This document shows, piece after piece, positions 20,602 to 61,701 of a DNA stretch of 64,000 bases (position 1 is the first letter of the stretch; each line of letters starts with the position of its first letter). The stretch comes from an uncultured Gaiellales bacterium (GTDB lineage Bacteria; Actinomycetota; Thermoleophilia; RBG-16-64-13), in contig CAYRES010000004.1 of NCBI GenBank assembly GCA_964423425.1, positions 8,736 to 72,735 of the forward strand. Direction: 5' to 3'. The translations under genes were made by a program, and so were the position numbers. The notes beneath the pieces are model-generated. The model worked only from the letters and a program-made list of their open reading frames with translations. It searched no databases and was not told the origin of the DNA.

Positions 20602-21507
20602 GTGTACAGAGTCTTGCAGCCTTTTGAGTACCTCGAAGCAAAGAGCGTCGACCACGCCGTGGAGCTTCTCACCCGCCTGGGTCCTGACGCCCGGGTCATC
20701 GCCGGAGGCACGGATCTCATCATCTCCATGAAGAAACGTGACCTGGCTCCGAAAGCCCTTATCGCCATTGGAGGGCTCAGCGAATTGAGCTTTCTCGAAG
20801 CCACGACCGAAGGTGGGCTTCGCATCGGGCCTCTGGTGACGCATGCGGCGGTCGCCGCTTCAGAGGTCGTCCGGGAACGTTTCGAGATGCTGGCGGTGGC
20901 AGCGGGGGAAGTGGGTACGCCACAGGTGAGGAACATGGGCACCCTAGGCGGCAACGTGTGCAAGGCCGGCCCCTCGCAGGACACTCCCCCGGTACTCATC
21001 GCCCTCGAGGCCGTGCTCACACTGCGGGGCCCCCACGGGGAGAGAAGCGTGCCGATGGGAGAATTCTGCACCGGTCCCTTCTGCACCGTTGTTGCTCCCG
21101 AAGAAGTTCTCACCGAGATCACCATCCCTCCGCTGCCGGAAGGCAGCGCCGGTTGTTACAAGTGGTGCACCAAGATCACGAAGGTGGATGAGACGCTGGC
21201 CGGGGCCGGTGTCGTGCTGTCACTGGCTGATGACGGTACCTGCAAGGACGTGCGCATCGGACTGGGCTCGGTTGCGCCCACGGCGATCCGGGCGCGGCAG
21301 GCCGAAGGGATGCTTCTCGGTACGAAGCTCGAACCGGGTGAGGTGGAGGCGGCGGCTGAGACGGCCTTCACCGAGTGCATGCCTCGCTCCCGGCCCGGTT
21401 ATCGCCGCCACATGGTGAGGGTGATGGTGAAGGACGCGGTCATGGAGCTCAAGGAGAAGATCGTGGGAGACAGTACGTCGAGTGACCCGGGGGAGGCGCC
21501 CCGATGA
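20602..21507 (+). CDS. Xanthine-dehydrogenase-family FAD-binding (medium, CoxM-like) subunit
   Basis: FEYLEAKSVDHAVELL......ARVIAGGTDLI is the molybdopterin-dehydrogenase FAD-binding N-terminus. 301 aa. Confidence 0.9.
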   Translation: MYRVLQPFEYLEAKSVDHAVELLTRLGPDARVIAGGTDLIISMKKRDLAPKALIAIGGLSELSFLEATTEGGLRIGPLVTHAAVAASEVVRERFEMLAVAAGEVGTPQVRNMGTLGGNVCKAGPSQDTPPVLIALEAVLTLRGPHGERSVPMGEFCTGPFCTVVAPEEVLTEITIPPLPEGSAGCYKWCTKITKVDETLAGAGVVLSLADDGTCKDVRIGLGSVAPTAIRARQAEGMLLGTKLEPGEVEAAAETAFTECMPRSRPGYRRHMVRVMVKDAVMELKEKIVGDSTSSDPGEAPR

Positions 21508-21986
21508 AGACTCTGGCCAACTTCGTGGTGAACGGCGAACCGTATGAACTTGCCATCGAGCCGAATCTTCTTCTCATAGAGGTGCTCCGGGACGAACTCG
21601 GGCTGACGGGTACGAAGCACAGCTGTGGAGTCGGCAACTGCGGTGCCTGTACCGTTCTCGTCGAGGGGGAACCGGTGCTTGCCTGTCTCAGTCTGGCCAT
21701 GGCTGCGCGAGGAAAGGCCATCACCACCATCGAGGGCTTGGCCGAAGGCCCCACCCTACATCCGCTCCAAGAGGCCTTCATCGAGGTGGGGGCCATTCAG
21801 TGCGGCTATTGCACGCCGGGCATGATCCTCACCGCGAAGGCTCTGCTTGACAAGAAACCCGACCCCACCGAGGAGGATGTCCGTGAAGCCTTGGCGGGCA
21901 ACATCTGCCGCTGTACCGGTTACGTGAAGATTATTGAGGCGGTACTCGCTGCTGCCGAGGCCATGCGGAAGGGGGCGGCCCGATGA
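21504..21986 (+). CDS. (2Fe-2S)-binding small subunit of molybdenum hydroxylase (CoxS-like)
   Basis: Plant-type plus second 2Fe-2S motifs: CGVGNCGACTV....C and CGYCTPGM....CRCTGY. Confidence 0.92.
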   Translation: MKTLANFVVNGEPYELAIEPNLLLIEVLRDELGLTGTKHSCGVGNCGACTVLVEGEPVLACLSLAMAARGKAITTIEGLAEGPTLHPLQEAFIEVGAIQCGYCTPGMILTAKALLDKKPDPTEEDVREALAGNICRCTGYVKIIEAVLAAAEAMRKGAAR

Positions 21987-43629: not shown

Positions 43630-44328
43630 ATGATCCTGTGGGGCAAGATATCTGAGTTCTCCATCTTTGCCGTGCTGCAGTTCTTGGCCCAGTACCGCAT
43701 GACGGGAGTTCTCGAGATCCAGGACTTCGAGGAGTTCGGCTCCATCTATTTGAGTGAGGGCCGGGTCGACGCTATCTCACTACCACTCTCCGACGATCTC
43801 CTGGGCAAGCGCATGGTCGCCGCCGGAGTGATCAACGAGGAGCAGCTCAAGGAGTGCCTGCTCTCCGCCACCGACGAAGAGAGCCCCACCCCCTTGGGGG
43901 TAGCGCTTCTGCAGAAGGGCTACACAGACAGAAAGACACTTCAGGAGATTGTGAATCGCCAGATTCACGATCAAGCCCTCGAACTTGCCGATTGGAAGTC
44001 CGGCACCTTCCGTTTCGTGCTACCCGATCAGCCGTTCCACTTCTCCATCACACCCTCCATCGACGTGCAGAGTCTCTTGCTTGAGGCATCCCGACGGCTG
44101 GATGAAGGAGAGAGACCGCGTCGGGAGAAGATCGAGGTGGAGGACGAAGTCTGTCTCACCTGCACTCTGCCCTGCTCCGAGGAGATCAAGGCCCGCTTCT
44201 TGAAAAGCGACATCTGTCTGTGGCGGAGCATGCCCACCATCGCCCGTGACCATACCTTTCTTGCGCCCAAACGCCGGCGGAGGAGAGACGAGGTCGATGA
44301 GCACGATCCCGAGCTCCCCTTCCTCTAA
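43630..44328 (+). CDS. DUF4388 domain protein
   Basis: N-terminal block LWGKISEFSIFAVLQFLAQYRMTGVLEIQDFEEFGSIYLSEGRVDAI fits the DUF4388 consensus (L.G.L......dlLQ.l.....tG.L.......G.i.f..G.iv.A). Confidence 0.7.
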   Translation: MILWGKISEFSIFAVLQFLAQYRMTGVLEIQDFEEFGSIYLSEGRVDAISLPLSDDLLGKRMVAAGVINEEQLKECLLSATDEESPTPLGVALLQKGYTDRKTLQEIVNRQIHDQALELADWKSGTFRFVLPDQPFHFSITPSIDVQSLLLEASRRLDEGERPRREKIEVEDEVCLTCTLPCSEEIKARFLKSDICLWRSMPTIARDHTFLAPKRRRRRDEVDEHDPELPFL

Positions 44329-44346: not shown

Positions 44347-44808
44347 GTGCGCATTGAGCTAGTCTGTGTCGGCCGCCTGAACGCAGAGACCTCCCCACTG
44401 TTCGCTCACTACGCGAGACTGCTGCGGCCCTACGCCACGCTGGATGTGCGAGAGGTTCCCTCGGTGCCGGTGTCCCGGGGACACAAGGTGGTGATGGCGG
44501 CCGAAGGCGACCACATCCTTGACCGTCTTCGGCAGGGGGCCTTTGTCGTGGTGCTCGATCGTGCAGGAAGGGCATTCAGCTCAACCGAGCTCAGTGCGTA
44601 TCTCTCCGATCGCAAGGTGGGAGGTGCGAGCCATTTCCAGTTCGTCATCGGGGGAACGTTGGGTCTGGATCCCCGAGTGGGGGCACAGGCGAATCTTCAC
44701 TGGTCTCTGTCGCCGCTCACCTTTCCCCATCAACTCGCGCGGTGTATCGTGGCCGAGCAGCTCTATCGGGCGTTTCGCATCGAGCGGGGCGAACCGTACC
44801 ACTACTGA
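44347..44808 (+). CDS. rlmH: 23S rRNA (pseudouridine1915-N3)-methyltransferase
   Basis: SPOUT-fold RlmH motifs (VVLDRAGRAFSSTELSAYL, FVIGGTLGLDPRV, LSLSPLTFPHQLARCIVAEQLYRA). Confidence 0.9.
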   Translation: MRIELVCVGRLNAETSPLFAHYARLLRPYATLDVREVPSVPVSRGHKVVMAAEGDHILDRLRQGAFVVVLDRAGRAFSSTELSAYLSDRKVGGASHFQFVIGGTLGLDPRVGAQANLHWSLSPLTFPHQLARCIVAEQLYRAFRIERGEPYHY

Positions 44809-44825
44809 GTGAGAGGAAGACGGGA

Positions 44826-46502
44826 GTGCTTCACGACAGGCTGGGCAGGATAATCGACGAATGGCTGGCCGAGAAAGAGCTTCAAGGGGCCCCCACCTTC
44901 GTGCTGGAGAGGCCCGCTGACGAAGCTCACGGCGACTACGCCACACCCTTCTGTATGCAGCTGGCCAGAACGGCCCGCCGCCCGCCGCGAGAACTGGCTG
45001 CCGAGCTGCGTGAGCGTATCCTGGCCGACAAAGACATGGCCGAGCTCGTGGCGCAGGTGGATATCGCGGGGCCCGGCTTTCTCAATCTGACTCTTTCCGC
45101 GCGGGCCCTCATCACCGCGGCGCGGGAACTTCTCGCCGAGGGAGAGGAAGTGGGGAGGGGGTCCCGGCGAGAGGCTTTGTACATCAATCTGGAGTATGTG
45201 AGTGTCAATCCGAACGGGCCGCTCCATGTGGGGCACGGGCGCTATGCGGCGTACGGCGACGCTCTCGCCCGGCTGCTGGCATACAGCGGGCACCAAGTGG
45301 TGCCGGAGTTCTACATCAACGACTACGGTCGGCAGATGGAGATGTTCGGCCGTTCGGTGGCGGCACGCTACGCCCAGTCGTTCGGACTTGACGTTTCCGT
45401 CCCGGAGGACGGGTATCAGGGCGAGTACGTCAAGGACGTCGCCACGCACATCAGGGAAGAGGTGGGAGACCGGTGGGTCGAAGCACTCGGTGATCCGTCG
45501 GCGTTTCTTGATCCCGACTCTCCGCTTCTCCTGTTCTTCCGCGAGCGCGGGTATCGGCTCATGCTTGAGTCGATGAAGCACGAACTGGAGCGCTTCCGGG
45601 TGACCTTCGCCGTGTGGTTCAGCGAGACGATTCTTCACGAGGAAGGCAGGGTGCAGGCCTGTATCGATCGTTTTCTGGAGCGCGGCGACGCCTATGTGCA
45701 GGAGGATGCAGTGTGGCTGCGCACCAGCGAATACGGCGACGACAAGGATCGCGTGCTCATCCGCAGTAACGAGCGTCCCACGTACTTCGCCGCAGACATC
45801 GCCTACCATGAGGACAAGCTCTCCCGCGGCTTCGATCACATGATCAACATCTGGGGGGCCGACCATCACGGCTACGTCGCCCGGATGAAAGCGGCCGTGG
45901 GCCTGTTGTCAGGCGATCCCGACAGGCTGGAAGTGATCATCGGGCAATTGGTGAATCTGCAGGAGGAGGGCGAGGCCAGGCAGATGTCGACCCGCAAGGG
46001 TGAGATGGTGACCCTGGAAGAGCTGATCGAGGCCATCGGCGTGGATGCAGCCCGGTTCTTCTTGGTCATGCGATCCCACGACCAGGCCCTGGATCTCGAC
46101 ATTGCTCTGGCCAGACGTCGTTCGCAGGACAACCCGGTCTATTACGTCCAGTACGCACACGCCCGCATCTGCAGCATCATCCGCAATCTTCCCGAGGGTA
46201 TCGAAGTCGGCATCGGGGAGTCGGAGGCGATCTTCGCAACCACGCAGGAACGTGCCTTGATCAAGCGTCTTGATGAGTTTCCGGGAGTGGTCATGGATGC
46301 CGCCGACCGCCGGGCGCCCCACCGCATTGCTTCCTATGCACAGGAGCTGGCGGCGGATTTCCATGTGTTCTACAAGAACTGCCGGGTGATCGGGTCGGAG
46401 CCGGTCGTGGCGTCTTCACGGCTCGCTCTCTGCATGATCACAAGGCGGGTGATCGCCCGCTGTCTCGACCTGCTCGGTGTGGCGGCACCGGAGTCCATGT
46501 AG
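44826..46502 (+). CDS. argS: Arginine--tRNA ligase
   Basis: HIGH-type PNGPLHVGHGR. The FYINDYGRQMEMFG (DxGxQ) motif. C-terminal DALR anticodon-binding region. GTG start at 44826 with GAGGAAG RBS. Confidence 0.93.
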   Translation: MLHDRLGRIIDEWLAEKELQGAPTFVLERPADEAHGDYATPFCMQLARTARRPPRELAAELRERILADKDMAELVAQVDIAGPGFLNLTLSARALITAARELLAEGEEVGRGSRREALYINLEYVSVNPNGPLHVGHGRYAAYGDALARLLAYSGHQVVPEFYINDYGRQMEMFGRSVAARYAQSFGLDVSVPEDGYQGEYVKDVATHIREEVGDRWVEALGDPSAFLDPDSPLLLFFRERGYRLMLESMKHELERFRVTFAVWFSETILHEEGRVQACIDRFLERGDAYVQEDAVWLRTSEYGDDKDRVLIRSNERPTYFAADIAYHEDKLSRGFDHMINIWGADHHGYVARMKAAVGLLSGDPDRLEVIIGQLVNLQEEGEARQMSTRKGEMVTLEELIEAIGVDAARFFLVMRSHDQALDLDIALARRRSQDNPVYYVQYAHARICSIIRNLPEGIEVGIGESEAIFATTQERALIKRLDEFPGVVMDAADRRAPHRIASYAQELAADFHVFYKNCRVIGSEPVVASSRLALCMITRRVIARCLDLLGVAAPESM

Positions 46503-50603: not shown

Positions 50604-51161
50604 CTAGATGTTGAGTCTGGCCAGGTGGGGGAGGTTGCGATGGAGTTGGTGGTAGTCGAAACCATAACCCACGAAGAAGCAGTCGGGCACGGTGAAGCCG
50701 GTGTACTTCACCGGGACTTCCACCAGGCGCCGGTGCGGCCTGTCGAGTAATGTGCAGACATTGAGAGACCGTAGTTCGCGGGACTCCAGGAAGCGGGTGA
50801 TGTAGTAGAGCGTGAGGCCGGTGTCGATGATGTCTTCGACGATGATCACATCTTTCCCGGTGAGCGGCTGCTCCGTATCCTTGGTGATGCGGATGGTGGG
50901 GCGATCGGCTCGTTTGTGATCTTGCTGGTACGAGGTGATCGCCATGTACTCCATCTCCAGAGGAAGGTGTATAGCCCGGGCCAAGTCGGCGATGAAGAAC
51001 ACGGCCCCTTTGAGAATGGAGAGAAGGACGAGTTCCTTGCCTTCGTAATCGGCTGTGATCTCAGCACCCAACTCATGGATTCGTGCCTTGAGGGTGCCTT
51101 GGTCGAGAAACGATTCTCCAATGACGGGGTCGTGACGAAGGGTCTCGTCTCGCGCCATCAT
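50604..51161 (-). CDS. hpt: Hypoxanthine phosphoribosyltransferase
   Basis: PRPP-binding VIIVEDIIDTGLTL and LSILKGAVFFIADL, typical of HPRT. 185 aa. Confidence 0.92.
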   Translation of the reverse strand: MMARDETLRHDPVIGESFLDQGTLKARIHELGAEITADYEGKELVLLSILKGAVFFIADLARAIHLPLEMEYMAITSYQQDHKRADRPTIRITKDTEQPLTGKDVIIVEDIIDTGLTLYYITRFLESRELRSLNVCTLLDRPHRRLVEVPVKYTGFTVPDCFFVGYGFDYHQLHRNLPHLARLNI

Positions 51162-51541
51162 TGCGGGTGCTCGAGGTCGAACTTCTTGGCCAACTGCACG
51201 AAGTCGCGCTTGTAGAGGAGCTTGATGCGAGTACCCGGATACTTCTCCTTCAGCTTGCGCACCTTTCGGTTCTTCTCGGTGACGAGTGACTGCTTCATCT
51301 GGGTGACCTCGATGTACAGGTCAAGCTCGGGCAGGTAGAAGTCGGGAGTGAAGGCCTCGAGGATGTTACCTTGCTCGTCTTGTTCAAGAATGAAGGTGCG
51401 CGGTTCGTATTGCCAGGGAATGGCATAATAGTCGAGTATTCGCGCCGCCTGAAGCTCGGTGTGAGTGGCGAAGCGGGGGGGCTTGTCGCCCCTGAAGTGA
51501 TTGAAAACCGGCGTATTGACGGTCGGGGTTTCCTCGCTCAT
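51158..51541 (-). CDS. Conserved hypothetical protein (possible PD-(D/E)xK-like fold)
   Basis: 127 aa with FTPDFYLPELDLYIEVTQMK (a D...E.K-like arrangement). Translationally coupled to hpt (ATGA overlap). Confidence 0.45.
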   Translation of the reverse strand: MSEETPTVNTPVFNHFRGDKPPRFATHTELQAARILDYYAIPWQYEPRTFILEQDEQGNILEAFTPDFYLPELDLYIEVTQMKQSLVTEKNRKVRKLKEKYPGTRIKLLYKRDFVQLAKKFDLEHPQ

Positions 51542-51658
51542 CCTAAGTGGTAATTCTATCAGAACGAGTTCCCGGCACCCCGGTGAGTGTCATCGTTGCT
51601 TTGCCATGTGATACCGTACCGGCGACTCGGTCCCTCCCTCATGCGTGCTGGAGAAACC

Positions 51659-52978
51659 ATGACTCACACCCTCATCTATCCGGCGTACTCCGCCCACAAT
51701 GAGCGCGGACATCTCACTCTCGACGGCTGCGACCTGGTCGATTTGGTCGACGAGTTCGGTTCTCCCTTGGCCGTGTACGAGGAGGAGACCATTCGTGATC
51801 AGTGCCGTAGGCTCCTGGAGGCCTTCGGCAGCCGTACCGATGATTTCGAGGTGATCTACGCGTCAAAAGCGTTCCCCTGTGTGGCGGCGCTGCAGCTGGT
51901 GGCCGAGGAAGGTCTCTCCCTCGACGTCTCGTCGGGGGGTGAGTATCATATGGCTGTCTGTGCCGGCTTTCCGCTGGACCGTGTCTTCTTCCATGGCAAC
52001 AATAAGACGGCCAATGAACTCGCCTATGCGCTCGACCACGGTGTCGGGGTCGTGGTGGTCGACAGTTTCAGCGAACTCAGCATGCTCGAACGGATGGCGG
52101 AAGAGCGATCATTGCGCCAGAAGGTGCTCCTCAGGCTTACCCCGGGGGTGGAGGCTCATACGCACCACTACATCCAGACCGGTCAGGAAGACTCGAAGTT
52201 CGGCTTCGGTCTGGCCGAGAATATCGGGCTCGAGGCCATTCACGCAGCCATGAAGGCTTCTCACCTCGATCTACTCGGCCTTCATGCGCACATAGGCAGC
52301 CAGATCTTTGAGCTGGCGGCCTTCAGAGCTGAGATTGCCGTGCTCGTCGACGTGATCCGCCAGGCCCATGAGCGATATGGATTCGAGTGCCGTTACCTCA
52401 ATGTCGGTGGGGGTTTGGGTATCCGCTACACAGAAGAAGACGAGCCTTCCTCCATCGACGAGTATGCTGAGATAAAGGTGAAGGGTGTGCAGGAGGAAAT
52501 GAACTCGTTGGGCCTTCCTGTGCCCCGGGTACTTGTGGAACCTGGAAGGCTGTTGGTGGGCAAAGCCGGCGTCACCGCCTATCGGATCGGGGCGATCAAA
52601 GAAGTGCCCGGCATTCGCACCTATGTGAGTGTCGACGGGGGTATGAGTGACAACATCCGGCCCATGCTGTACGGTGCCAAGTACGAGGCCATGCTCGCCA
52701 ATCGCGCCGAGGAGGCGGCCGACACTGTCGTCACCATCGCCGGCAAGCACTGCGAGAGCAGCGATATCCTGGTGAAGGATGTGCGACTGCCCAAGCCTCG
52801 CATGGGCGATACGGTTGTCATTCCGGCCACCGGGGCGTACTGCTTTGCGATGGCCTCCAACTACAACGGCAGTCCACGTCCGGCCGTGGTGTTTGTGCGC
52901 AATGGTGAGGCTCGCGTCGTGGTCGAGCGCGAGACCTACGACGACCTGGTTGCCAAGCACAGGCCTCTTCGGGGGTGA
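51659..52978 (+). CDS. lysA: Diaminopimelate decarboxylase
   Basis: Fold-III PLP decarboxylase: YASKAFPCVAALQL (PLP Lys), GGGLGIRY, and C-terminal EPGRLLVG...CESSD. Confidence 0.92.
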   Translation: MTHTLIYPAYSAHNERGHLTLDGCDLVDLVDEFGSPLAVYEEETIRDQCRRLLEAFGSRTDDFEVIYASKAFPCVAALQLVAEEGLSLDVSSGGEYHMAVCAGFPLDRVFFHGNNKTANELAYALDHGVGVVVVDSFSELSMLERMAEERSLRQKVLLRLTPGVEAHTHHYIQTGQEDSKFGFGLAENIGLEAIHAAMKASHLDLLGLHAHIGSQIFELAAFRAEIAVLVDVIRQAHERYGFECRYLNVGGGLGIRYTEEDEPSSIDEYAEIKVKGVQEEMNSLGLPVPRVLVEPGRLLVGKAGVTAYRIGAIKEVPGIRTYVSVDGGMSDNIRPMLYGAKYEAMLANRAEEAADTVVTIAGKHCESSDILVKDVRLPKPRMGDTVVIPATGAYCFAMASNYNGSPRPAVVFVRNGEARVVVERETYDDLVAKHRPLRG

Positions 52979-52982
52979 GGTG

Positions 52983-54251
52983 ATGGAAAGAGCTCGCATA
53001 GGTCTCCTGGGCTACGGCACAGTCGGTTCGAACGTGTACCGGCTTCTCGAGCGGGAGAGGAGCCAGATTCTGGAGGCGACCGGCGTCGACCTGGAAGTGG
53101 TGGGGATTGCCGAGCTCAATACCTCCAAGCACGGTGTGGGGGCCCCGCGGGAGCTCTTCTCCACCGATGCCGGGGCCGTCATCGCCCGCCCCGACGTAGA
53201 TATTGTGGTTGAGCTTGTGGGAGGGGTGGAGACGGCCTTCATGTTGGTGCATACGGCGTTGTCCTCGGGTAAGAGCGTGGTCACCGCCAACAAGCAGCTC
53301 TTGGCGAACAGGGGCGGTCCGCTGTTCGAGCTGGCCAAGGAGAAGGGCCGGCAGATACGGTTCGAGGCTTCGGTTGCCGGCGCCGTACCCATTATCAAGG
53401 TCATGCGCGAGAGCATGATCGCGGCCGACCTGCACACTGTGTATGGAATCGTGAACGGCACCACCAACTACATCCTCACTGCCATGTACGCCGGGGAGGG
53501 GGACTACGCGAGTACCCTGGCGCAGGCCCAGCGCCTCGGTTATGCGGAGGCCGATCCCACCGACGACGTGAGTGGTGGTGACGCGGCCGCCAAGATGGCC
53601 ATCTTGGCCTCCATTGCGTTCAAGTCACGGGTCACCCTGGCCGACGTCCGCTACGAGGGCATCGACAGGATCACGCCGGCCGATGTGCAATACGCGAAGG
53701 ATTTTGGCTACGTTATCAAGCTGGTTGGAGCGGCACGGCTCGTCGAGGGGAGAGTGAATGTACACGTGAGCCCGGCGCTTGTTCCCGAGGGGCACCCGCT
53801 GGCAGCGATCTCTGGCTCATACAACGCAGTGCTCATGCAGGGTCACTCCATCGACGAGATCATGCTCTCGGGACCGGGCGCCGGGGGCGTGCAGACGTCT
53901 TCTGCGGTTATCAGCGACATCGTCTCCATCGTAAGCACGAAGACTGCGGGCTTTCTTCAGAACTGCTCCTGCTATCGCCATCTGGACTTCTGTCCCGACG
54001 ACGAATTGGAGTCGGCGTTCTTCATACGGGCGCAAGTGGAAGACCGGGCGGGTGTGCTCTCTCAGATCTCCTCGGTGTTCGGGGAGCACGATGTGTCTAT
54101 CGAGAGCATGATCCAGAAGGGCCACGGGGAGCAGGCCGAGTTGGTGTTTGTCACCCACCCCACGAAGGAGCATAACGCCACGGCGGCTCTCCGGGCAGTG
54201 GAGTCTTTGGCCTGTGTACGCGGAAGCACGATGGCCATTCGCGTTCTTTGA
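52983..54251 (+). CDS. hom: Homoserine dehydrogenase
   Basis: RIGLLGYGTVGSNVYRLL Rossmann motif, catalytic domain, and C-terminal ACT domain (FFIRAQVEDRAGVLSQISSVFGEHDVSI). Confidence 0.92.
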   Translation: MERARIGLLGYGTVGSNVYRLLERERSQILEATGVDLEVVGIAELNTSKHGVGAPRELFSTDAGAVIARPDVDIVVELVGGVETAFMLVHTALSSGKSVVTANKQLLANRGGPLFELAKEKGRQIRFEASVAGAVPIIKVMRESMIAADLHTVYGIVNGTTNYILTAMYAGEGDYASTLAQAQRLGYAEADPTDDVSGGDAAAKMAILASIAFKSRVTLADVRYEGIDRITPADVQYAKDFGYVIKLVGAARLVEGRVNVHVSPALVPEGHPLAAISGSYNAVLMQGHSIDEIMLSGPGAGGVQTSSAVISDIVSIVSTKTAGFLQNCSCYRHLDFCPDDELESAFFIRAQVEDRAGVLSQISSVFGEHDVSIESMIQKGHGEQAELVFVTHPTKEHNATAALRAVESLACVRGSTMAIRVL

Positions 54252-54315
54252 GTGGTGGTGCGTTCACGGAGCGGTGACTGAAGCTCAAGCGAGGCAAGAG
54301 AGGAAGAAGGCTATC

Positions 54316-55116
54316 GTGGCTCCAAGAAGGGCGCAGGCACGCATAGTGCATCTGTCGGATATCCATGCCGGGTCCCAGTACTTCGTCCCCAATCTGCTTG
54401 AACGGGCCCTGGTGGAGATCAACGACATGTCGGCGGACATCGTGGTGGTGACGGGCGATCTCACCAACATGGGCTATCGCCAAGAGTTTCGAGAAGCCTC
54501 GGAGTATCTCACCCGCCTGCACTGCGACGACGTGCTCGTGGTACCCGGCAATCATGACAGCAGGAATGTGGGCTATACGCACTTCGAGCGCATCTTTGGC
54601 CACGAACGCACCATTCGCAAGAGCGGTGTCACCATTGTCGGAATCGATTCCACCGAGCCCGATCTCGACAACGGAAGGGTGGGGCGGGGCAGCTACGATC
54701 GCGTGCGGGAGACTTTCCTGGAGGCGCCGGAGGACTTCAAGATCTTCGCACTCCATCACCACCTTCTCCCGATTCCAGGCACCGGCCGGGAAAGGAACGT
54801 GGTCCACGATGCCGGGGATGTGCTCGAGCTCCTGCTCGAGGTGGGAGTCAATCTGGTGCTTTCCGGACACAAGCACGTTCCCTATGTCTGGCGGCTGGAA
54901 GGCATGTTTGTCGTGAACACCGGTACCGTCTCCACGCTGCGCCTGCGCGGCGACACCAAGCCCTGCTATGTCGTCATCGATATCGACGGCAGTCAAGTGG
55001 TCATCACCCGCAGGTACCCATTCCATGGGGGTGAGGTCGTGGTTGAATTCGATGCCTGCACGGCCACATATACCCGGCATGAGTCCCACATGGACCGCAT
55101 TCTGGCGGAATCCTGA
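54316..55116 (+). CDS. Metallophosphoesterase (calcineurin-like)
   Basis: RIVHLSDIHAG, VVTGDLTN and VVPGNHD motifs. GTG start at 54316 with AGGAAGAAGG RBS. The ORF runs from 54148 and overlaps hom. Confidence 0.85.
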   Translation: MAPRRAQARIVHLSDIHAGSQYFVPNLLERALVEINDMSADIVVVTGDLTNMGYRQEFREASEYLTRLHCDDVLVVPGNHDSRNVGYTHFERIFGHERTIRKSGVTIVGIDSTEPDLDNGRVGRGSYDRVRETFLEAPEDFKIFALHHHLLPIPGTGRERNVVHDAGDVLELLLEVGVNLVLSGHKHVPYVWRLEGMFVVNTGTVSTLRLRGDTKPCYVVIDIDGSQVVITRRYPFHGGEVVVEFDACTATYTRHESHMDRILAES

Positions 55117-56498
55117 TGCCGCGGGCCGTCGTCCTTATCGACGGTGAGCACTATCCGCCCGTGGTGGCCGAGGCACTTGTATCGCTCGGGCGGGAGTACG
55201 AGGTGGTTGCCGCCGTCTTCCTGGGCGGAACAGAGAAGATCAAGGGAGACGATCTGCAGGAAGAAGCAGAGCGCCTGTACGGAGTGCCGGTGGTGTTCGG
55301 CCCTTCTCCGACCGTCTCGTTGCTGGAGGCCATTGAGCGTTTTGCCCCCGCGGTGATCGTTGACGTGAGCGACGAACCGGTGGTAGGATACGCGGAGAGG
55401 TTCCGCCTCATCAGTCATGCGTTGTCGCGGAGCGTCTCGTACGCCGGCTCTGACTTTCGCTTCGAACCCCCAGAACTGCCACGTATCGCGTGTGCTCCAT
55501 CGCTGTCCATCATCGGTACCGCGAAGAGGGTGGGCAAGACGGCTCTGTCGGGCTTCGTTGCTCGAACCCTCCAAAGCCAAAGGCGTGGTCGGCAGCAGGC
55601 GGCGCGCGTGGTGATCGTAGCTATGGGCAGGGGGGGGCCATCGGAGCCTGAGGTGATTGATGGCCTGGGTGTTGAGCTCGGGGCGAGCGAGCTTCTGCAA
55701 TGGAGCCGGCAGGGCAGGCACGCGGCCTCCGATCATTTCGAGGATGCTGCACTGAGTCGGGTCACGACGGTGGGCTGCCGCCGCTGTGGGGGTGGGTTGG
55801 CGGGCCGGCCTTTCGTCTCCAACGTAGCCGCAGGGGCGGAGGTAGCCAACTCGCTGAAGCCTGATCTCATCGTATTCGAGGGGAGCGGAGCGGCGATACC
55901 GCCGGTCGCCACTGACAGCCGTGTCTGCGTGGCCGGGGCCCATCAGCCCCTCGACTACGTGACGGGCTATTTGGGTTCGTATCGGGCGCTCATCAGTGAT
56001 GCGGTAGTGCTGACGATGGCGGAGGAGCCCCTCGCTGGGTCGGGCAACGTCAAGGAGGCCATGCGGGGACTGGCGGAGCTCGTGCCGGAGGTGCCGGTAC
56101 TGCCTGTGGTGTTCAGACCCCGGCCCATGGATGAGGTGTCGGGGAAGAAGGTGGCTTTCTTCTGCACGGCACCCCGGGCGTTGGAGGAGGTGCTCACGTC
56201 CCATCTCGAGGCGGAGCATGGTTGTCGAGTGAAGCTGTTCTCGCCGAATCTATCGAACCGGCGTGTGTTGCGGGAGGACTTCGGCCGACCGGAGATGGCA
56301 GAGGTGGAACTCGTTCTCACCGAGATAAAAGCGGCGGCGATCGACGTGGTCGCCGAGGAAGCGGAGAGGCGCGGCATACCTGTGAGCTTTGTCGATAATG
56401 ATCCTGTCGAAGTGGCGCCGGCTAAGGCGGGCGATCTCGAGGCTCTGAGTGCGTACCTGGCCGATGTAGCCCGCGAACGCTTCACGGAGAGCCGGTAG
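55116..56498 (+). CDS. cpgS: Cyclic 2,3-diphosphoglycerate synthetase (archaeal-type)
   Basis: 460 aa. N-terminus MPRAVVLIDGEHYPPVV and P-loop-like SIIGTAKRVGKTALSGF match the methanogen cyclic 2,3-diphosphoglycerate synthetase family. Size matches (~460 aa). ATGA overlap with the upstream gene. Confidence 0.75.
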   Translation: MPRAVVLIDGEHYPPVVAEALVSLGREYEVVAAVFLGGTEKIKGDDLQEEAERLYGVPVVFGPSPTVSLLEAIERFAPAVIVDVSDEPVVGYAERFRLISHALSRSVSYAGSDFRFEPPELPRIACAPSLSIIGTAKRVGKTALSGFVARTLQSQRRGRQQAARVVIVAMGRGGPSEPEVIDGLGVELGASELLQWSRQGRHAASDHFEDAALSRVTTVGCRRCGGGLAGRPFVSNVAAGAEVANSLKPDLIVFEGSGAAIPPVATDSRVCVAGAHQPLDYVTGYLGSYRALISDAVVLTMAEEPLAGSGNVKEAMRGLAELVPEVPVLPVVFRPRPMDEVSGKKVAFFCTAPRALEEVLTSHLEAEHGCRVKLFSPNLSNRRVLREDFGRPEMAEVELVLTEIKAAAIDVVAEEAERRGIPVSFVDNDPVEVAPAKAGDLEALSAYLADVARERFTESR

Positions 56499-56503
56499 TT
56501 GCC

Positions 56504-57457
56504 ATGGTGACGAGGCGCATTCGCCGGCAGATGGGAGAGCGCGAGCCAATCCTTGTGGTCTCCGACGGGCATTCGGTGCCCTTCTCCAAAGGGCTTCTCG
56601 GTCAGTCGCTCACTGCCACCGGCCTCGATCCCGAGAAGGCCTACCGGGTGGGCATGCAGGTGGAGGCACGCCTGCGGCAACTGGGCATGCTCAGGGTGCC
56701 CGTGTCCATGCTTCCGGACCTCGTGTCGCAGGTGGTGGAGGAGCAGGCCGGTTCTCTCTACTACGACCGCTATCTCACCTGGCATGAACTCTCCTACTCG
56801 CAGAGACCGGTCATCATCCTGGTGGGTGGAGGAACGGGTGTGGGCAAGAGCACGCTCGCCTCGCAGCTCGCCAACCGGCTGGGGCTCGTGCGCATCATTT
56901 CCACCGATACCATCCGCCAAGTGATGAGAGCCTTCTTCTCGCCCACCCTCATGCCGGCCATCCATTACTCCTCCTTCGAATCCGACCTAGCCATGCAGAT
57001 GCCTCTCCAGGAAGAGGCCGACCCCGTACTGCTGGGTTTCGCAGAGCAGGTGAAACTGCTGAACGTGGGTGCACAAGCGGTGGTCGACCGGGCAGTGCAG
57101 GAGGGCCAGCGCATGGTACTCGAGGGGGTGCACCTGGTGCCGGGGTTCATCCCTTCCTGCGCCGATGCGCGCGCCTTGATCCTCCCGCTCGTGGTCGCTG
57201 TTCGCGACGAAGGCCTACACCGCGGCCACTTCGTGGTGCGGGAGCGCGAGACCGATGGACGCCGGCCGGTGGAGCGCTATCTCGAGAATTTCGGCAACAT
57301 CCGCAAGATCCAGGACTTCATTCTGGAGCGGTCCCAGAGTGAGGGAACGTTGGTGATCGAGAACCACGATATCGATGAGGCGGTGGGCCTGGCCGTCGAC
57401 GCACTCTATGAACTCATCGAAGAGAAGCAAGAGGGGGACGAAGGCCGTGGCGCCTGA
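56504..57457 (+). CDS. 2-phosphoglycerate kinase
   Basis: P-loop ILVGGGTGVGKSTLASQLANRLG preceded by the 2-phosphoglycerate kinase N-domain (ILVVSDGHSVPFSKGLL). Adjacent to cpgS, as in methanogens. Confidence 0.78.
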   Translation: MVTRRIRRQMGEREPILVVSDGHSVPFSKGLLGQSLTATGLDPEKAYRVGMQVEARLRQLGMLRVPVSMLPDLVSQVVEEQAGSLYYDRYLTWHELSYSQRPVIILVGGGTGVGKSTLASQLANRLGLVRIISTDTIRQVMRAFFSPTLMPAIHYSSFESDLAMQMPLQEEADPVLLGFAEQVKLLNVGAQAVVDRAVQEGQRMVLEGVHLVPGFIPSCADARALILPLVVAVRDEGLHRGHFVVRERETDGRRPVERYLENFGNIRKIQDFILERSQSEGTLVIENHDIDEAVGLAVDALYELIEEKQEGDEGRGA

Positions 57458-58457
57458 AGTGCGGACCAATGAGCACGGGCCCGGCGAGCGGGGGGATTCG
57501 CACTGCACATGCACCGATTTCGTTCGGGTCACGAAGGCCGCTGCGATCGCGGCGGGCCGCTGGATGGGGCAGGGCAAACAGGCGGAGGCACGTGAAGCTG
57601 CCTCCAAGGCCCTTCGAGCCGCCATGGCCGAGCTGCCGGTGAGTGCCGAGGTGGTGGTTGCGCCGGGGGGGAGCGAAGAAGCAGGCAGCTTCTCAGTGGG
57701 GCAAGTGCTGGGCAGCGGCGGCCGGCGCTGTTCGGTGGCGGTTGATGCCTTGGAAGGGTCAGGCATCCTGGCCAAAGGGCAGGGAGGAGCGATCTCCGTG
57801 CTGGCGGTCGGCGAGCCGGGGAGCATCACGCCGGTGCCACACATGTACATGCAGAAGTTGGCGGTGGGGGCAAGTGCCGCAGGTAACATCGACATCGACG
57901 CTCCTATCGAGGATAACTTGAAGGCCATTGCCCGGGCTTACGGGCGCGAGGTGGGCGAGCTCGCCGTGATTGTGCTTGACCGTCCCCGCCACGAAGATCT
58001 GGTCGAGGACATTCGCAAGGCGGGTGCCCGCATCAAGCTCATCCCCGACGGTGACATCATGGCTAGCATTGCGGCTGCCGTGAGCGGTACCGGCGACCAC
58101 GCCTACATCGGTATCGGTGGCTCCACGGAGGGAGTGATGACGGCTGCTGCCATGCGCTGTCTGGGCGGCGAGATACAGGGCAAGTTCTGGCCCCTGTCGC
58201 GTCGGGAGATCGAAAGGGCTCGTGAGTACGGCATAGACGACATAGAGCACACGTTTCGGACCGGCGATCTGGTGAAGGGAGACATGATCTTCTCCGCCAC
58301 CGGTGTGAGCACCGGCGACGTGTTGCGGGGAGTCGACTACTTCCACGAGGGCGCCCGCAGCCATACGCTCCTCATGTGTACGAGGTGCAGAATGGTGTGC
58401 TTCGTCGACACCATTCATCTGTTCAGTGAAGACAGAAGTGAGATCAAGTTGCTGTAG
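57447..58457 (+). CDS. glpX: Fructose-1,6-bisphosphatase class II
   Basis: DFVRVTKAAAIAAGRWMGQGKQ N-terminus. Downstream GlpX metal-site blocks (AVDALEGSG, DGDIMASIAA). GTG start at 57447 or 57459, overlapping/abutting the 2-phosphoglycerate kinase stop. Confidence 0.88.
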   Translation: MAPEVRTNEHGPGERGDSHCTCTDFVRVTKAAAIAAGRWMGQGKQAEAREAASKALRAAMAELPVSAEVVVAPGGSEEAGSFSVGQVLGSGGRRCSVAVDALEGSGILAKGQGGAISVLAVGEPGSITPVPHMYMQKLAVGASAAGNIDIDAPIEDNLKAIARAYGREVGELAVIVLDRPRHEDLVEDIRKAGARIKLIPDGDIMASIAAAVSGTGDHAYIGIGGSTEGVMTAAAMRCLGGEIQGKFWPLSRREIERAREYGIDDIEHTFRTGDLVKGDMIFSATGVSTGDVLRGVDYFHEGARSHTLLMCTRCRMVCFVDTIHLFSEDRSEIKLL

Positions 58458-58561
58458 CCGCATTCGTGTACCGCTCAGTGTATCGATGCGAGAGCCAAGT
58501 AGGAGAACGTAGGCGTTGAGGGACCACCAGCGTTGAGGGACGCGATGGACACTAGAGGGAT

Positions 58562-59818
58562 GTGATGGAGATAACCGAGCTTGAGCCGAGGCTCCTCTCC
58601 GACCTTCACACGGTCGCAGGTGATATCGGCATAAAGAACTTCCGTAAGTATTCCAAAGCGGAACTGATCATGAGGATGCTTTCCGAGCAGGCCTCCGGCG
58701 ACCGGGGCTTGAATACGCGCACAGGACTCCTTGATGTGCTGCCCGACGGCTTCGGCTTCCTCCGCACCCAGGGCTACACGCAGTCCGATTCGGACATCTA
58801 CGTGTCGCTGTCGCAAATCCGCCGCTTCAAGCTGAGGCGCGGAGATGAGATTTCCGGTCAAGTGCGGACACCCAAGGACAATGAGAAGTATCACGCGCTG
58901 CTCAAGATCAACACCGTGAATGGCCTCGATCCCGAGCAGGCCCGCAATCGTCCCAACTTCGACTCCCTCACGCCTCTCTTCCCGGAAGACCGCCTGCGAC
59001 TCGAGACCGGTTCCGACCGGCTGGCTCCCCGGGTCATGGATCTCATCTGTCCCATCGGCAAGGGTCAACGCGGCCTCATAGTGTCGCCCCCCAAGGCGGG
59101 TAAGACGACCATCCTCAAGGAGATCGCCAACTCCATCTCGGTGAACAACCCCGAGGTCCACCTGCTCGTCCTCTTGGTCGACGAACGGCCGGAGGAAGTC
59201 ACCGACATGGAACGCTCGGTCAACGGCGAGGTGGTGAGCTCCACCTTCGATCAGCCTTCGGAGAATCACCTCCAGGTCACGGAACTGGTGCTCGAGAGGG
59301 TGAAGCGGCTGGTCGAGGTGGGCAGGGATGTGGTGGTGCTGCTCGACTCCATCACGCGGTTGGCGCGCGCCTACAACCTGGCCGCACCGGCGAGCGGCCG
59401 CATTCTCTCCGGCGGGGTCGACTCCACCGCCCTCTATCCGCCGAAGAAGTTCTTCGGTGCGGCCCGTAACATCGAGGAGGGGGGCTCGCTCACCATCCTC
59501 GCCACGGCACTCGTGGACACCGGCTCCCGTATGGACGAGGTCATCTTCGAGGAGTTCAAGGGAACTGGCAACTGGGAGGTCCACCTGAGCAGGCAGCTCG
59601 CCAACAAGCGGATCTTCCCGGCCATCGACATCGAGAAGTCCGGCACCCGCAAGGAGGAGTTGCTCATGGCGCCCGCCGAGGCCAAGATGGTGTGGAAGCT
59701 CCGCAGCGTCCTCCATGCCCTCGATCCGAACGCGGCCATCGAGCTCCTCATCGACAAGCTCCGGGAGACTCGGTCGAACACCGAATTCCTCGAGCAGATG
59801 CGCAAGAACTCCCGCTAG
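58562..59818 (+). CDS. rho: Transcription termination factor Rho
   Basis: OB/RNA-binding region (GFGFLR..GY..S..DIYVS), Walker A GQRGLIVSPPKAGKTTIL and Walker B VVLLDSITRLARA. 418 aa. Confidence 0.95.
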   Translation: MMEITELEPRLLSDLHTVAGDIGIKNFRKYSKAELIMRMLSEQASGDRGLNTRTGLLDVLPDGFGFLRTQGYTQSDSDIYVSLSQIRRFKLRRGDEISGQVRTPKDNEKYHALLKINTVNGLDPEQARNRPNFDSLTPLFPEDRLRLETGSDRLAPRVMDLICPIGKGQRGLIVSPPKAGKTTILKEIANSISVNNPEVHLLVLLVDERPEEVTDMERSVNGEVVSSTFDQPSENHLQVTELVLERVKRLVEVGRDVVVLLDSITRLARAYNLAAPASGRILSGGVDSTALYPPKKFFGAARNIEEGGSLTILATALVDTGSRMDEVIFEEFKGTGNWEVHLSRQLANKRIFPAIDIEKSGTRKEELLMAPAEAKMVWKLRSVLHALDPNAAIELLIDKLRETRSNTEFLEQMRKNSR

Positions 59819-59851: not shown

Positions 59852-60850
59852 ATGACTGTTGACATAGGCATAGACGGTGTGTTCATCGGCCATCACACCG
59901 ACGTGGTGGCCTGCACTGGGTGCACCATCATACTCTCGCCCGGGGGAGCCGTCGCCTCCGTCGATGTGCGCGGTGGAGCTCCCGGCACGCGGGAGACCGA
60001 TCTGCTCTCGCCGCTCTCCTCACCGCCGCTGGTCCACGGCATTCTGCTTACGGGCGGCTCGGCCTTCGGCCTCGCCGCCGCCGACGGGGTGGTCCAGTAC
60101 CTCGAGGAGAACGGCTACGGTTTCGATACCGGCTACGCCCGCGTGCCGCTCGTGCCCGCGGCCGTCGTCTACGATCTGGCGTTGGGCCGACCCGATGTGC
60201 GCCCCCGACCGGAGCATGGCTACACGGCGGCCGCTGCGGCGGCGCGGGAAGTTGAGGAAGGGTCGGTGGGAGCCGGCACCGGTGCCACTGTGGGTAAGGT
60301 GCGCCGGGAGAGGAGCTGGATGAAGGCCGGCCTTGGTATCGCTAAGGTCGAACTGCCGGGCGGGGCCACCGTAGTGGGCGTGTCGGTGGTGAACGCCTTC
60401 GGTGATGTGCTGGGGTCCGACGGCAATGTCCTGGCGGGAGCCCTTGCCGACGACGGGTCTTTCCTCGATACGCGGCGCCACCTTCTCACTCTCGACGATC
60501 ACCCGCACTTCGACCGCATGCAGAACACTACGCTGTGCTGTGTGGTCACCGACGCGGTACTCACCAAGACCCAGGCCGCCTCTGTGGCACGTATGGCTCA
60601 CGACGGCATGGCTCGGGCGGTCTCCCCGGTGCACACGCCCGTGGACGGCGATGTGATCTTCGTGCTGTCGTGTGGCAGCAAGCGCTCCAACGTGTTCCAG
60701 ATGGGGAGCGCCGCAGCCCGGGTGGTAGCTCAGAGTATACGCCGGGGGGTGCGACAGGCGACCGGGGTCGGGGGAGTGCGGGCGCTGTGCGACCTTGAGT
60801 CGGCGAAAGCACAGAGTGCGATGGACGAGCCGTCGGGGACGTGCACCTGA
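59852..60850 (+). CDS. P1/S58 family peptidase (DmpA/L-aminopeptidase D-Ala-esterase/amidase-like)
   Basis: IGHHTD....TGCT.I, GGAPGTRETDLL and GG.SAFGLAAADGV motifs of the DmpA/ArgJ fold. Confidence 0.85.
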   Translation: MTVDIGIDGVFIGHHTDVVACTGCTIILSPGGAVASVDVRGGAPGTRETDLLSPLSSPPLVHGILLTGGSAFGLAAADGVVQYLEENGYGFDTGYARVPLVPAAVVYDLALGRPDVRPRPEHGYTAAAAAAREVEEGSVGAGTGATVGKVRRERSWMKAGLGIAKVELPGGATVVGVSVVNAFGDVLGSDGNVLAGALADDGSFLDTRRHLLTLDDHPHFDRMQNTTLCCVVTDAVLTKTQAASVARMAHDGMARAVSPVHTPVDGDVIFVLSCGSKRSNVFQMGSAAARVVAQSIRRGVRQATGVGGVRALCDLESAKAQSAMDEPSGTCT

Positions 60851-61701
60851 TGGAGGTCGTGGTCACGAAGCCCGCCGCGCGGGCGGCGGTGGAAGCGGCC
60901 CGGTTCGCCACCAAGACGGTGGGCATCGTGCCCACCATGGGATACCTGCACGAAGGGCACTTGTCTCTGGCACGGCAGGCACGCACCGAGGACGACTTCG
61001 TGGTGCTCACCATCTTCGTCAACCCCACCCAGTTCGGCCCATCGGAAGACCTCGCCCGTTATCCGCGCGACTTGGAGCGCGACCTGACTCTGTGCCGGGA
61101 GGCCGGCGTGGACCTCGTCTTCTCGCCCTCGAACGAGGAGATGTATGGGCCCGATTTCGCCACCTGGGTCACGGTGGAGGGGCTTACGGAGGGATTGTGC
61201 GGGCAGGCCCGCCCCACGCATTTCCGGGGGGTCACCACGGTGGTGAGCAAGCTGTTCGGCATCTGCCGGGCGCACCGAGCCTACTTCGGGCAGAAGGACG
61301 CCCAACAGGCCTTCGTCATCCGGCGTATGACCGAGGATCTCGACCTGGGTGTCGAGATTGTCGTCTGTCCGACAGTGCGGGAGCCCGACGGGCTGGCCAT
61401 GAGTTCGCGCAACGTCAATCTCTCGCCGGAGGCTCGGGTCCAAGCGCCTGCTCTGTACAGGGCTCTCCAGGTGGCGGAGCAGATGGTGCGTGCTGGAGAA
61501 CGAGATGCCGCCCGCGTCAGGGCAGCGGTGGAGGAGTTCATTTCGATTCAAGCCCCTCTCGGCCGCATCGATTACGTGGAGATCGCCGATACGCGGCTCA
61601 TCAGGCCCATCGCGCGGCTCGAGGGCCAGGTGTTGGTTGCCCTGGCGGTGTTCTTTGGTGACACGCGGCTGATCGACAACGTGATCCTGCAGGTGTCTTA
61701 G
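60850..61701 (+). CDS. panC: Pantoate--beta-alanine ligase
   Basis: VGIVPTMGYLHEGHLSL (HIGH-like), GQKDAQQ and MSSRN motifs. Confidence 0.93.
   Translation: MEVVVTKPAARAAVEAARFATKTVGIVPTMGYLHEGHLSLARQARTEDDFVVLTIFVNPTQFGPSEDLARYPRDLERDLTLCREAGVDLVFSPSNEEMYGPDFATWVTVEGLTEGLCGQARPTHFRGVTTVVSKLFGICRAHRAYFGQKDAQQAFVIRRMTEDLDLGVEIVVCPTVREPDGLAMSSRNVNLSPEARVQAPALYRALQVAEQMVRAGERDAARVRAAVEEFISIQAPLGRIDYVEIADTRLIRPIARLEGQVLVALAVFFGDTRLIDNVILQVS

Follow-up and report, generated by a model that had tools for sequence, protein, structure and literature searches.

The 64,000 nucleotides analysed here (hereafter the window) come from an uncultured Gaiellales bacterium (GenBank assembly GCA_964423425.1, contig CAYRES010000004.1, positions 8,736 to 72,735) and carry a tightly packed run of genes on the plus strand, from 51.6 to 60.9 kb. 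Within this run, a gene encoding a calcineurin-type metallophosphoesterase (MPE) is followed by genes for a homolog of cyclic 2,3-diphosphoglycerate (cDPG) synthetase (cDPGS), for a protein of the 2-phosphoglycerate kinase (2PGK) family and for the class II fructose-1,6-bisphosphatase GlpX (Table 1). The spacing of these four genes is close enough to allow their co-translation. An initial annotation, made from the sequence alone, had placed the synthetase gene, the kinase gene and glpX at this site; the open reading frames were confirmed, and the P-loop of the kinase, ILVGGGTGVGKSTLAS, was located.

The 460-residue synthetase homolog retrieves the cDPGS of Methanothermus fervidus (PDB 8ORK/8ORU) over residues 4-451 (phmmer, E=1e-117; 43% identity) and a second solved cDPGS, PDB 9SXB (436 aa), with E=9e-100. 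Full-length homology at such E-values excludes chance, and the assignment of this open reading frame to the cDPGS family in the initial annotation is borne out. A local search against Pfam and NCBIfam profiles gave no match for the 460-residue frame; as the family precomputed for this protein is PF27272 (CpgS_N), this negative reflects the age of the library rather than the lack of a family. In the M. fervidus enzyme, the ligands of 2,3-diphosphoglycerate (2,3-DPG), Mg2+ and ADP are E45 and K46 (from the partner subunit), K145, R146, K149, T150, D208, E305, P335, T353, E404 and K406 (PMC10690619). Eleven of these twelve are identical in the window protein (E40, K41, K137, R138, K141, T142, D206, E303, T351, E403 and K405) and in all 12 bacterial and archaeal sequences that we aligned, among which about 120 columns are invariant. 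The twelfth, P335, corresponds to an F in the reference numbering, beside an R-P-x-P that is invariant, and the mismatch is probably a numbering offset. The Walker A motif (GxxGxGK[T/S]), including the K-R pair that contacts the substrate, reads GTAKRVGKT in the window protein and GTGKRIGKT in M. fervidus, where it comprises K145, R146, K149 and T150; the Mg ligands T142 and D206 (T150 and D208 in M. fervidus) are also kept. The window synthetase thus retains an intact cDPGS active site and is predicted to be catalytic.

The kinase matches the NCBIfam model NF003259 over its full length (positions 6-297 of 306; E=6e-85), with 285 bits against an equivalog cut-off of 343, and matches only the C-terminal 310 of the 492 positions of NF008994 (E=2e-89; 300 bits against a cut-off of 603). 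Its residues 20-94 give a weak ATP-cone match (E=1e-3; 20 bits against a gathering score of 25.8). In the 2PGK of Methanolliviera, which is encoded beside a cDPGS and is 34% identical to the window protein, the ATP-cone passes at 29.2 bits, and an ATP-cone-like N-terminus joined to a P-loop kinase appears to be the layout of both. A PDB sequence search with the kinase returned P-loop noise only and no 2PGK structure. The identity proposed in the initial annotation therefore holds as regards family membership and adjacency to the synthetase gene, and falls short of the equivalog cut-off: the protein is a clear member of the 2PGK family and a putative 2-phosphoglycerate kinase.

The MPE and cDPGS genes overlap by one nucleotide at 55114-55118 (...TCC TGATG CCG, TGA stop and ATG start); the initial annotation had recognised this coupling, although as an overlap of the ATGA type. 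A 5-nt gap separates cDPGS from 2PGK, and 2PGK is followed by glpX with an 11-nt overlap (GTG at 57447) or a 1-nt gap (start at 57459). An earlier glpX start, ATG 57375, is less likely than either of these; GTG 57447 agrees with the gene calls of identical contigs and with the sequence. A 64-nt gap lies 5' of MPE, whose start is most likely GTG 54316, where the ribosome-binding site GAGAGGAAGAAGG and the N-termini of homologs agree; a start at 54148 is improbable. Scanning 51-61 kb for promoter and terminator consensus sequences gave no signal above shuffled expectation within lysA..rho, and we therefore inferred transcript boundaries from spacing. An Rfam scan of the whole window found one tRNA only, with no riboswitch or leader near the cluster.

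Table 1. Genes and motifs of the cluster and of its chromosomal frame, in window coordinates
Feature	Position	Strand	Basis or remark
lysA	51587-52978	+	TIGR01048 above cut-off; upstream frame gene
hom	52983-54251	+	NF004976 homoserine dehydrogenase above cut-off; upstream frame gene
Metallophosphoesterase (MPE), calcineurin-type, 266 aa	most likely 54316-55116	+	Pfam Metallophos PF00149, E=3e-18; start from ribosome-binding site and homolog N-termini
cDPG synthetase (cDPGS) homolog, 460 aa	55116-56498	+	phmmer to PDB 8ORK/8ORU; PF27272
cDPGS Walker A / P-loop GTAKRVGKT	55515-55541	+	translation; aligned with M. fervidus GTGKRIGKT
2-phosphoglycerate kinase (2PGK) family protein, 317 aa	56504-57457	+	NF003259, NF008994
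2PGK P-loop ILVGGGTGVGKSTLAS	56816-56863	+	translation
Class II fructose-1,6-bisphosphatase GlpX, 336 aa from GTG 57447	57447 (or 57459) to 58457	+	TIGR00330; Pfam FBPase_glpX
rho (transcription termination factor)	58562-59818	+	TIGR00767, 656 bits; downstream frame gene
S58 peptidase	59852-60850	+	part of packed run
panC	60841-61701	+	downstream of S58 peptidase

The metallophosphoesterase and the other neighbours of the synthetase

Homologs of cDPGS were found in at least 549 loci, counting one genome per GTDB species, and gene neighbourhoods were surveyed in the best 80 of these. MPE lies directly upstream of cDPGS in 63 of the 65 loci of actinobacterial type; of the two exceptions, one is cut by a contig end and the other falls below the detection threshold. 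The spacing, measured at 67 loci (the 63 genome loci and four contigs duplicating the window), has a median of 26 nt from the MPE stop to the conserved DGEH motif near the N-terminus of cDPGS. An overlap of 1 or 4 nt between the end of MPE and the start of cDPGS is typical, and ATGA-type overlaps occur in many relatives. The identities of the two proteins co-vary over the loci (Pearson 0.90), and within the clade of the window MPE is the better conserved, with 70-79% identity compared with about 60% for the synthetase. The 2PGK gene adjoins cDPGS in 39 of the 80 loci, one archaeal locus among them. The core is thus the MPE-cDPGS pair, 2PGK and glpX being dispensable neighbours. The initial annotation had correctly taken the phosphoesterase for the upstream neighbour and had missed that no other partner of the synthetase is as conserved; the coordinates given there (55116-58457) stop just short of MPE.

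The motifs of the calcineurin-like metallophosphoesterases (PF00149), DxH, GD, GNH[DE], H and GHxH, are all found in MPE, and the metal-ligand residues are invariant in 19 sequences (D15-x-H17, G47-D48, G78-N79-H80-D81, H147-149 and G184-H185-K-H187). The protein also has an unusually large set of invariant basic residues (R83, R124, R158, R160, K186, R209 and R211), a pattern that would fit a polyanionic substrate. An AlphaFold model (pLDDT 82) finds its nearest solved folds in Rv0805 and GpdQ, at 17-21% identity. The pipeline label Icc/CpdA was rejected, with 37 bits for NF008359 against a cut-off of 225 and 17-21% identity to Rv0805. Its sequence thus marks MPE as a distinct subfamily that keeps its metal-ligand motifs and is predicted to be catalytically competent. 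A longer homolog of 364 aa (54% identity) was observed at L088 339-3140, after PhoU_div and PHO4-type phosphate transporter genes, on a contig that ends right after it.

GlpX itself is well identified (277 bits for TIGR00330, above the equivalog cut-off of 259.3; E=4.5e-106 for Pfam FBPase_glpX). Its tight spacing to 2PGK is limited to the window's own clade, and in other classes a gap of 240-270 nt precedes glpX or a transaldolase gene takes its slot. The 2PGK-glpX adjacency is therefore partly gene order inherited upstream of rho. The gluconeogenic link drawn in the initial annotation from the position of glpX right after the pair is accordingly upheld in adjacency and in the identity of GlpX, and weakened by a tight spacing that is clade-specific. 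The gene between 2PGK and rho in Aquicultor, Coriobacteriia and some Thermoleophilia encodes a transaldolase/fructose-6-phosphate aldolase (about 220 aa, PF00923), confirmed by Pfam at L026 8422-9078 and assigned by similarity at L020 8296-8985, L053 8275-8952 and L030 8309-9064.

It could be argued that both MPE and glpX are bystanders, whose adjacency to cDPGS follows from an inherited hom...rho gene order. Either glpX or the transaldolase gene stands just upstream of rho with or without 2PGK, and in Rubrobacter-type loci glpX is 240-270 nt away from cDPGS; moreover, glpX and rho are probably also adjacent in Bacillus subtilis, which is not known to carry cDPGS. However, the MPE stop and the cDPGS start overlap in most loci over four classes while the flanking genes vary (thrC, thrB and SppA upstream; 2PGK, glpX and tal downstream). 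The trio MPE-cDPGS-2PGK, with 4-nt overlaps, also occurs outside the hom...rho frame, in locus L087; found in another context, it appears to move as a unit. As for glpX, its spacing to 2PGK is small throughout the window's clade, and the two genes overlap in the window if GTG 57447 is used. A pure bystander role for both genes is, on balance, unlikely.

Other contexts were observed outside Actinomycetota. In metagenome-assembled genomes (MAGs) of Bacillota (L024 5044-11222; L031; L042), the cDPGS homolog has neither a phosphoesterase nor a kinase as neighbour and stands in the order GntR/UTRA regulator, cDPGS, periplasmic solute-binding protein, ABC permease and ATPase, which suggests a link to the uptake of a phosphorylated or acidic solute. 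In an Anaerolineae MAG (L038 2352-9023), ABC transporter genes lie upstream, and the homolog is flanked on one side by a xylose-isomerase-like TIM-barrel gene and on the other by a gene for an iPGM-domain protein of unusual domain order (Metalloenzyme 107-304, iPGM_N 411-540).

Distribution and inheritance of the module

At least 8000 clusters at 90% identity match when either the window or the M. fervidus cDPGS is the query, and an exhaustive HMMER search of 1.84 billion clusters at 50% identity gave only 221 representatives at E<=1e-30, many of them fragments. The family is thus populous yet compact in sequence. The best 80 loci are mostly from Actinomycetota (Thermoleophilia, Gaiellales, Rubrobacteraceae, Coriobacteriia and Aquicultor), the remainder being a few Bacillota, one Anaerolineae, Methanobrevibacter and Methanolliviera.

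In a neighbour-joining tree of cDPGS (87 sequences, 419 columns, 100 bootstraps), class-level groups are each monophyletic with 100% bootstrap. The window protein belongs to a Thermoleophilia-like core clade (98%), where its partner is a metagenome protein of 76% identity, and Thermoleophilia group with Rubrobacter (84%). The deep nodes between archaea and bacteria are poorly resolved, the two relevant groupings having 38% bootstrap each. The solved protein 9SXB, which is rich in Lys and Ile and without a C-terminal tail like Rubrobacter-type proteins, is placed near the Bacillota sequences. On average, the window cDPGS is 63% identical to the members of its own clade; the mean falls to 48-53% for other bacterial groups and to 44% for Methanobacteriales. 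Moreover, identity to the window proteins correlates over loci with that of rho, with Pearson coefficients of 0.80 for cDPGS, 0.88 for MPE and 0.81 for the kinase.

The chromosomal setting is also conserved. Several classes share the frame lysA-hom-(thrC, thrB and/or S49 peptidase)-MPE-cDPGS-(2PGK)-(glpX or transaldolase)-rho, in which the module is always followed by rho, 63-89% identical in related loci; the window also has argS, a few kb upstream. The order argS-lysA-hom-thrC-thrB-rho is a classical actinobacterial block. Together, the nested position of the window gene, the divergence that tracks rho and the conserved frame point to an ancient, vertical inheritance of the module within Actinomycetota. 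Any transfer between domains predates these actinobacterial classes, and its direction is not readable from our data. The horizontal acquisition from archaea put forward in the initial annotation is thus contradicted, as a recent event, by the phylogeny.

Further observations concern this frame and the rest of the window. The argS...lysA-hom...rho frame is kept at 44742-46502 and 51587-59818; neither thrC nor thrB occurs between hom and rho, so the organism must encode both elsewhere. Relatives have thrC, thrB and/or an S49 (SppA-like) peptidase gene between hom and the phosphoesterase. Before lysA, on the minus strand (50604-51541), a hypoxanthine-type phosphoribosyltransferase gene is followed by a small open reading frame that has no Pfam match. 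A phosphoribosyltransferase and small-frame pair lies directly upstream of MPE at L087 4962-5986, and the small frames of the two loci measure 127-148 aa. Just upstream of an rlmH-like SPOUT methyltransferase gene and argS, positions 43630-44328 encode a DUF4388-domain protein (E=5e-25). Further away, and recognised from N-terminal sequences only, are two pairs of indolepyruvate/2-oxoacid:ferredoxin oxidoreductase-like genes and a CoxM/S/L-like molybdenum hydroxylase cluster (8618-11040 on the minus strand; 17828-20601 and 20602-24286 on the plus strand).

A possible role in cyclic 2,3-diphosphoglycerate metabolism

We favour the reading that the cluster is a vertically inherited actinobacterial module that makes and turns over cDPG at the 2-phosphoglycerate node of gluconeogenesis, and consider it reasonably probable as a whole; that these bacterial enzymes synthesize cDPG seems, from their sequences, somewhat more probable still. 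The 2PGK homolog would phosphorylate 2-phosphoglycerate (2-PG) to 2,3-DPG, its putative ATP-cone suggesting control by the adenylate level, and the synthetase homolog would spend ATP on joining the 2- and 3-phosphates as a cyclic pyrophosphate, the route from 2-PG to cDPG costing two ATP. MPE could then reopen the cyclic pyrophosphate and/or dephosphorylate 2,3-DPG, giving back carbon and phosphate as 2-PG or 3-phosphoglycerate. If MPE, cDPGS, 2PGK and glpX are co-transcribed, the pool would fill during upward carbon flow. As has been argued for Methanothermobacter, such a pool may act as a store from which carbon, phosphate and phosphoanhydride are quickly drawn, and as an anionic solute, rather than as a dedicated thermoprotectant. 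In Methanothermobacter, cDPG turns over fast as a branch of gluconeogenesis and its hydrolase is inhibited by K+ and inorganic phosphate, and the M. fervidus synthetase is reversible and able to make ATP (PMC1224877).

Several points weigh against this reading. cDPG has been said to be exclusive to hyperthermophilic methanogens (PMC10690619), and in the literature searched we found no report of cDPG from any bacterium. A survey of Rubrobacter solutes reports other solutes, by a targeted method and in strains whose gene carriage was not checked (PMC3505630). The kinase remains under both NCBIfam equivalog cut-offs, in a family that includes mevalonate-3-phosphate 5-kinase (NF008996) and plant LPA1, and about 22 Rubrobacter-type loci have the order MPE-cDPGS-glpX-rho with no adjacent 2PGK and the wide gap before glpX. 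Co-expression of a synthetase with its hydrolase would result in a futile cycle unless regulated post-translationally. Finally, the identification of MPE as a cDPG or 2,3-DPG phosphohydrolase, which we propose tentatively from gene linkage, draws no support from archaea, because in Methanobrevibacter and Methanothermobacter the 6-8 kb around cDPGS contain no MPE.

An alternative in line with some of these points is that the bacterial proteins have drifted in function, the kinase acting on another phospho-acid or the synthetase cyclising or phosphorylating another bisphosphorylated substrate, so that no cDPG would be made. The sub-threshold scores in a functionally diverse kinase family, the many Rubrobacter-type loci lacking an adjacent 2PGK, the quite different contexts in Bacillota (GntR/UTRA, ABC importer) and Anaerolineae (xylose-isomerase-like, iPGM-like) and the silence of the literature searched would all be compatible with such a drift. 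It is nevertheless improbable in view of the synthetase, which keeps 11 of 12 ligand residues, including E40 and K41 of the partner subunit, together with the many columns that are invariant between bacteria and archaea. The compactness of the family also argues against a broad functional radiation, and the recurring neighbours (glpX, transaldolase, iPGM) handle C3-C7 phosphorylated intermediates near the phosphoglycerate node.

Alternatively, the module could mainly supply or buffer 2,3-bisphosphoglycerate, for instance as cofactor for a dependent phosphoglycerate mutase or as regulator, with cDPG as a minor side pool and MPE as a 2,3-DPG phosphatase. The direct product of 2PGK is indeed 2,3-DPG, MPEs are commonly phosphomonoesterases or phosphodiesterases, solute surveys have not seen a cDPG pool, and an iPGM-like gene is adjacent to cDPGS in one Chloroflexota locus. 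However, the most conserved pair is MPE-cDPGS and not MPE-2PGK, 2PGK being dispensable, and the conservation of an intact, ATP-consuming cyclase would be hard to explain if the cyclic product were irrelevant; the mutase type of the organism, for its part, is not readable from the window. We regard this possibility as slightly less probable than functional drift.

The initial annotation had also derived a thermophilic lifestyle from the presence of the gene pair. Methanobacterium and Methanobrevibacter, rumen and gut MAGs among them, carry cDPGS proteins with about 70% identity to that of M. fervidus. These methanogens, including Methanobrevibacter smithii, are mesophiles. M. smithii itself accumulates cDPG (PMC1224877). 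Many of the bacterial carriers are MAGs with isolate names that suggest soil, permafrost or subsurface, as far as such names can be read. Over eight proteins shared by the loci, the IVYWREL fraction of the window (0.424) falls within the span of its relatives (0.414-0.436); only this relative comparison was used, since the temperature formula gives absurd values of 50-95 C on such small gene sets. The presence of a cDPGS gene is therefore uninformative on thermophily, and the proposed lifestyle finds no support in these data. A horizontally acquired archaeal thermoprotectant (extremolyte) pathway marking thermophily is thus very improbable: although characterised cDPG enzymes and measured pools are solely archaeal, with the highest pools in hyperthermophiles, although some relatives are MAGs whose names suggest hot springs or the deep subsurface, and although the composition of the window gives an estimate of about 51 C (from a crude set of open reading frames that includes some on the wrong strand, and with a large formula error), the gene is nested among monophyletic bacterial classes, is less identical to archaeal homologs (44%) than to every bacterial group (48-63%), diverges with rho in a frame that is constant over four actinobacterial classes, has carriers with soil or permafrost names and in gut and rumen Methanobrevibacter, and lies in a locus whose eight proteins have an IVYWREL fraction inside the range of the relatives.

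Returning to a cDPG-producing module, it is tempting to go further and to suggest that cDPG is a widespread bacterial metabolite, used as a fast reserve of carbon, phosphate and energy by many early-branching Actinomycetota (soil Thermoleophilia, Gaiellales, Rubrobacter and Coriobacteriia), and that the coupled MPE is its hydrolase or a 2,3-DPG phosphatase, the gene for which has not been named in any organism; in this extended form the proposal is doubtful, although possible. The cDPGS and 2PGK homologs are new members of known families and are already named as such by annotation pipelines. As the initial annotation had assumed, bacterial homologs appear to be uncharacterised, for the literature searched contained no paper on bacterial cDPGS or 2PGK homologs. 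Nor did we find there the widespread, vertically inherited bacterial cluster, its invariant and distinct phosphoesterase partner, or the absence of any bearing on thermophily and recent transfer.

Synthetases whose active site is unaltered are widespread among bacteria, also in lineages with soil and gut record names. The cDPGS gene has been used as a marker of thermophily for ammonia-oxidising archaea (PMC7554672); if the bacterial enzymes work as in archaea, it would be unfit as a genomic marker of this kind. cDPG would then be a candidate store of phosphate and energy in widespread, little-studied actinobacterial lineages of soil and gut, and the coupled phosphoesterase a testable candidate for the degradative side of cDPG metabolism. 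Biotechnology based on extremolytes would gain a large new pool of bacterial catalysts, possibly adapted to mesophilic conditions.

Comparison with known systems

The window MPE shares the calcineurin-like fold and the dinuclear metal-ligand motifs with class III phosphodiesterase-type enzymes (Rv0805/CpdA, GpdQ and Lmo2642). It differs from the Rv0805/GpdQ type by its low identity, by TM-scores of 0.64-0.70, by its own set of invariant basic residues and by cDPGS as a fixed partner. The reaction proposed for it, from cDPG to 2,3-DPG, resembles that of the cDPG hydrolase activities of Methanothermobacter (van Alebeek 1994; Sastry 1992; in PMC1224877), a likeness that is a functional analogy only. 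One of the latter is membrane-bound, whereas the window MPE has no obvious membrane segment by eye, no prediction having been run; neither a gene nor a sequence is attached to these archaeal activities in the review (PMC1224877).

The kinase resembles the methanogen 2PGK (Lehmacher & Hensel 1994; NF003259, COG2074) in its match to the full-length model, in its P-loop and a putative ATP-cone-like N-terminus, and in adjoining cDPGS as in Methanolliviera. Similarly, 2PGK is adjacent to cDPGS in Pyrococcus yayanosii (PMC4890121). The window kinase differs from the methanogen enzyme by its scores below the cut-offs and its 34% identity, and many bacterial cDPGS loci are without 2PGK.

The closest counterpart of the window synthetase is the cDPGS of M. 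fervidus (8ORK/8ORU; Matussek et al. 1998; De Rose et al. 2023, PMC10690619). Both proteins are 460 aa long, with an N-terminal CpgS_N domain and a P-loop core, matching Walker A motifs and all but one of the 2,3-DPG, Mg and ADP ligand residues in common. In contrast to the characterised archaeal enzyme, the bacterial members are known here from sequence alone, and the window gene belongs to a bacterial host and is coupled to MPE inside an actinobacterial housekeeping block, unlike the solitary cDPGS genes of Methanothermobacter and Methanobrevibacter.

In its organization, the MPE-cDPGS pair is also reminiscent of ppk-ppx type operons. In such operons, the gene for the enzyme that makes a phosphate or energy reserve stands beside the gene for its hydrolase. 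The two cases involve unrelated protein families and different stores, but if MPE acts as proposed, enzymes that build and break a phosphoanhydride store would be encoded together in both cases.

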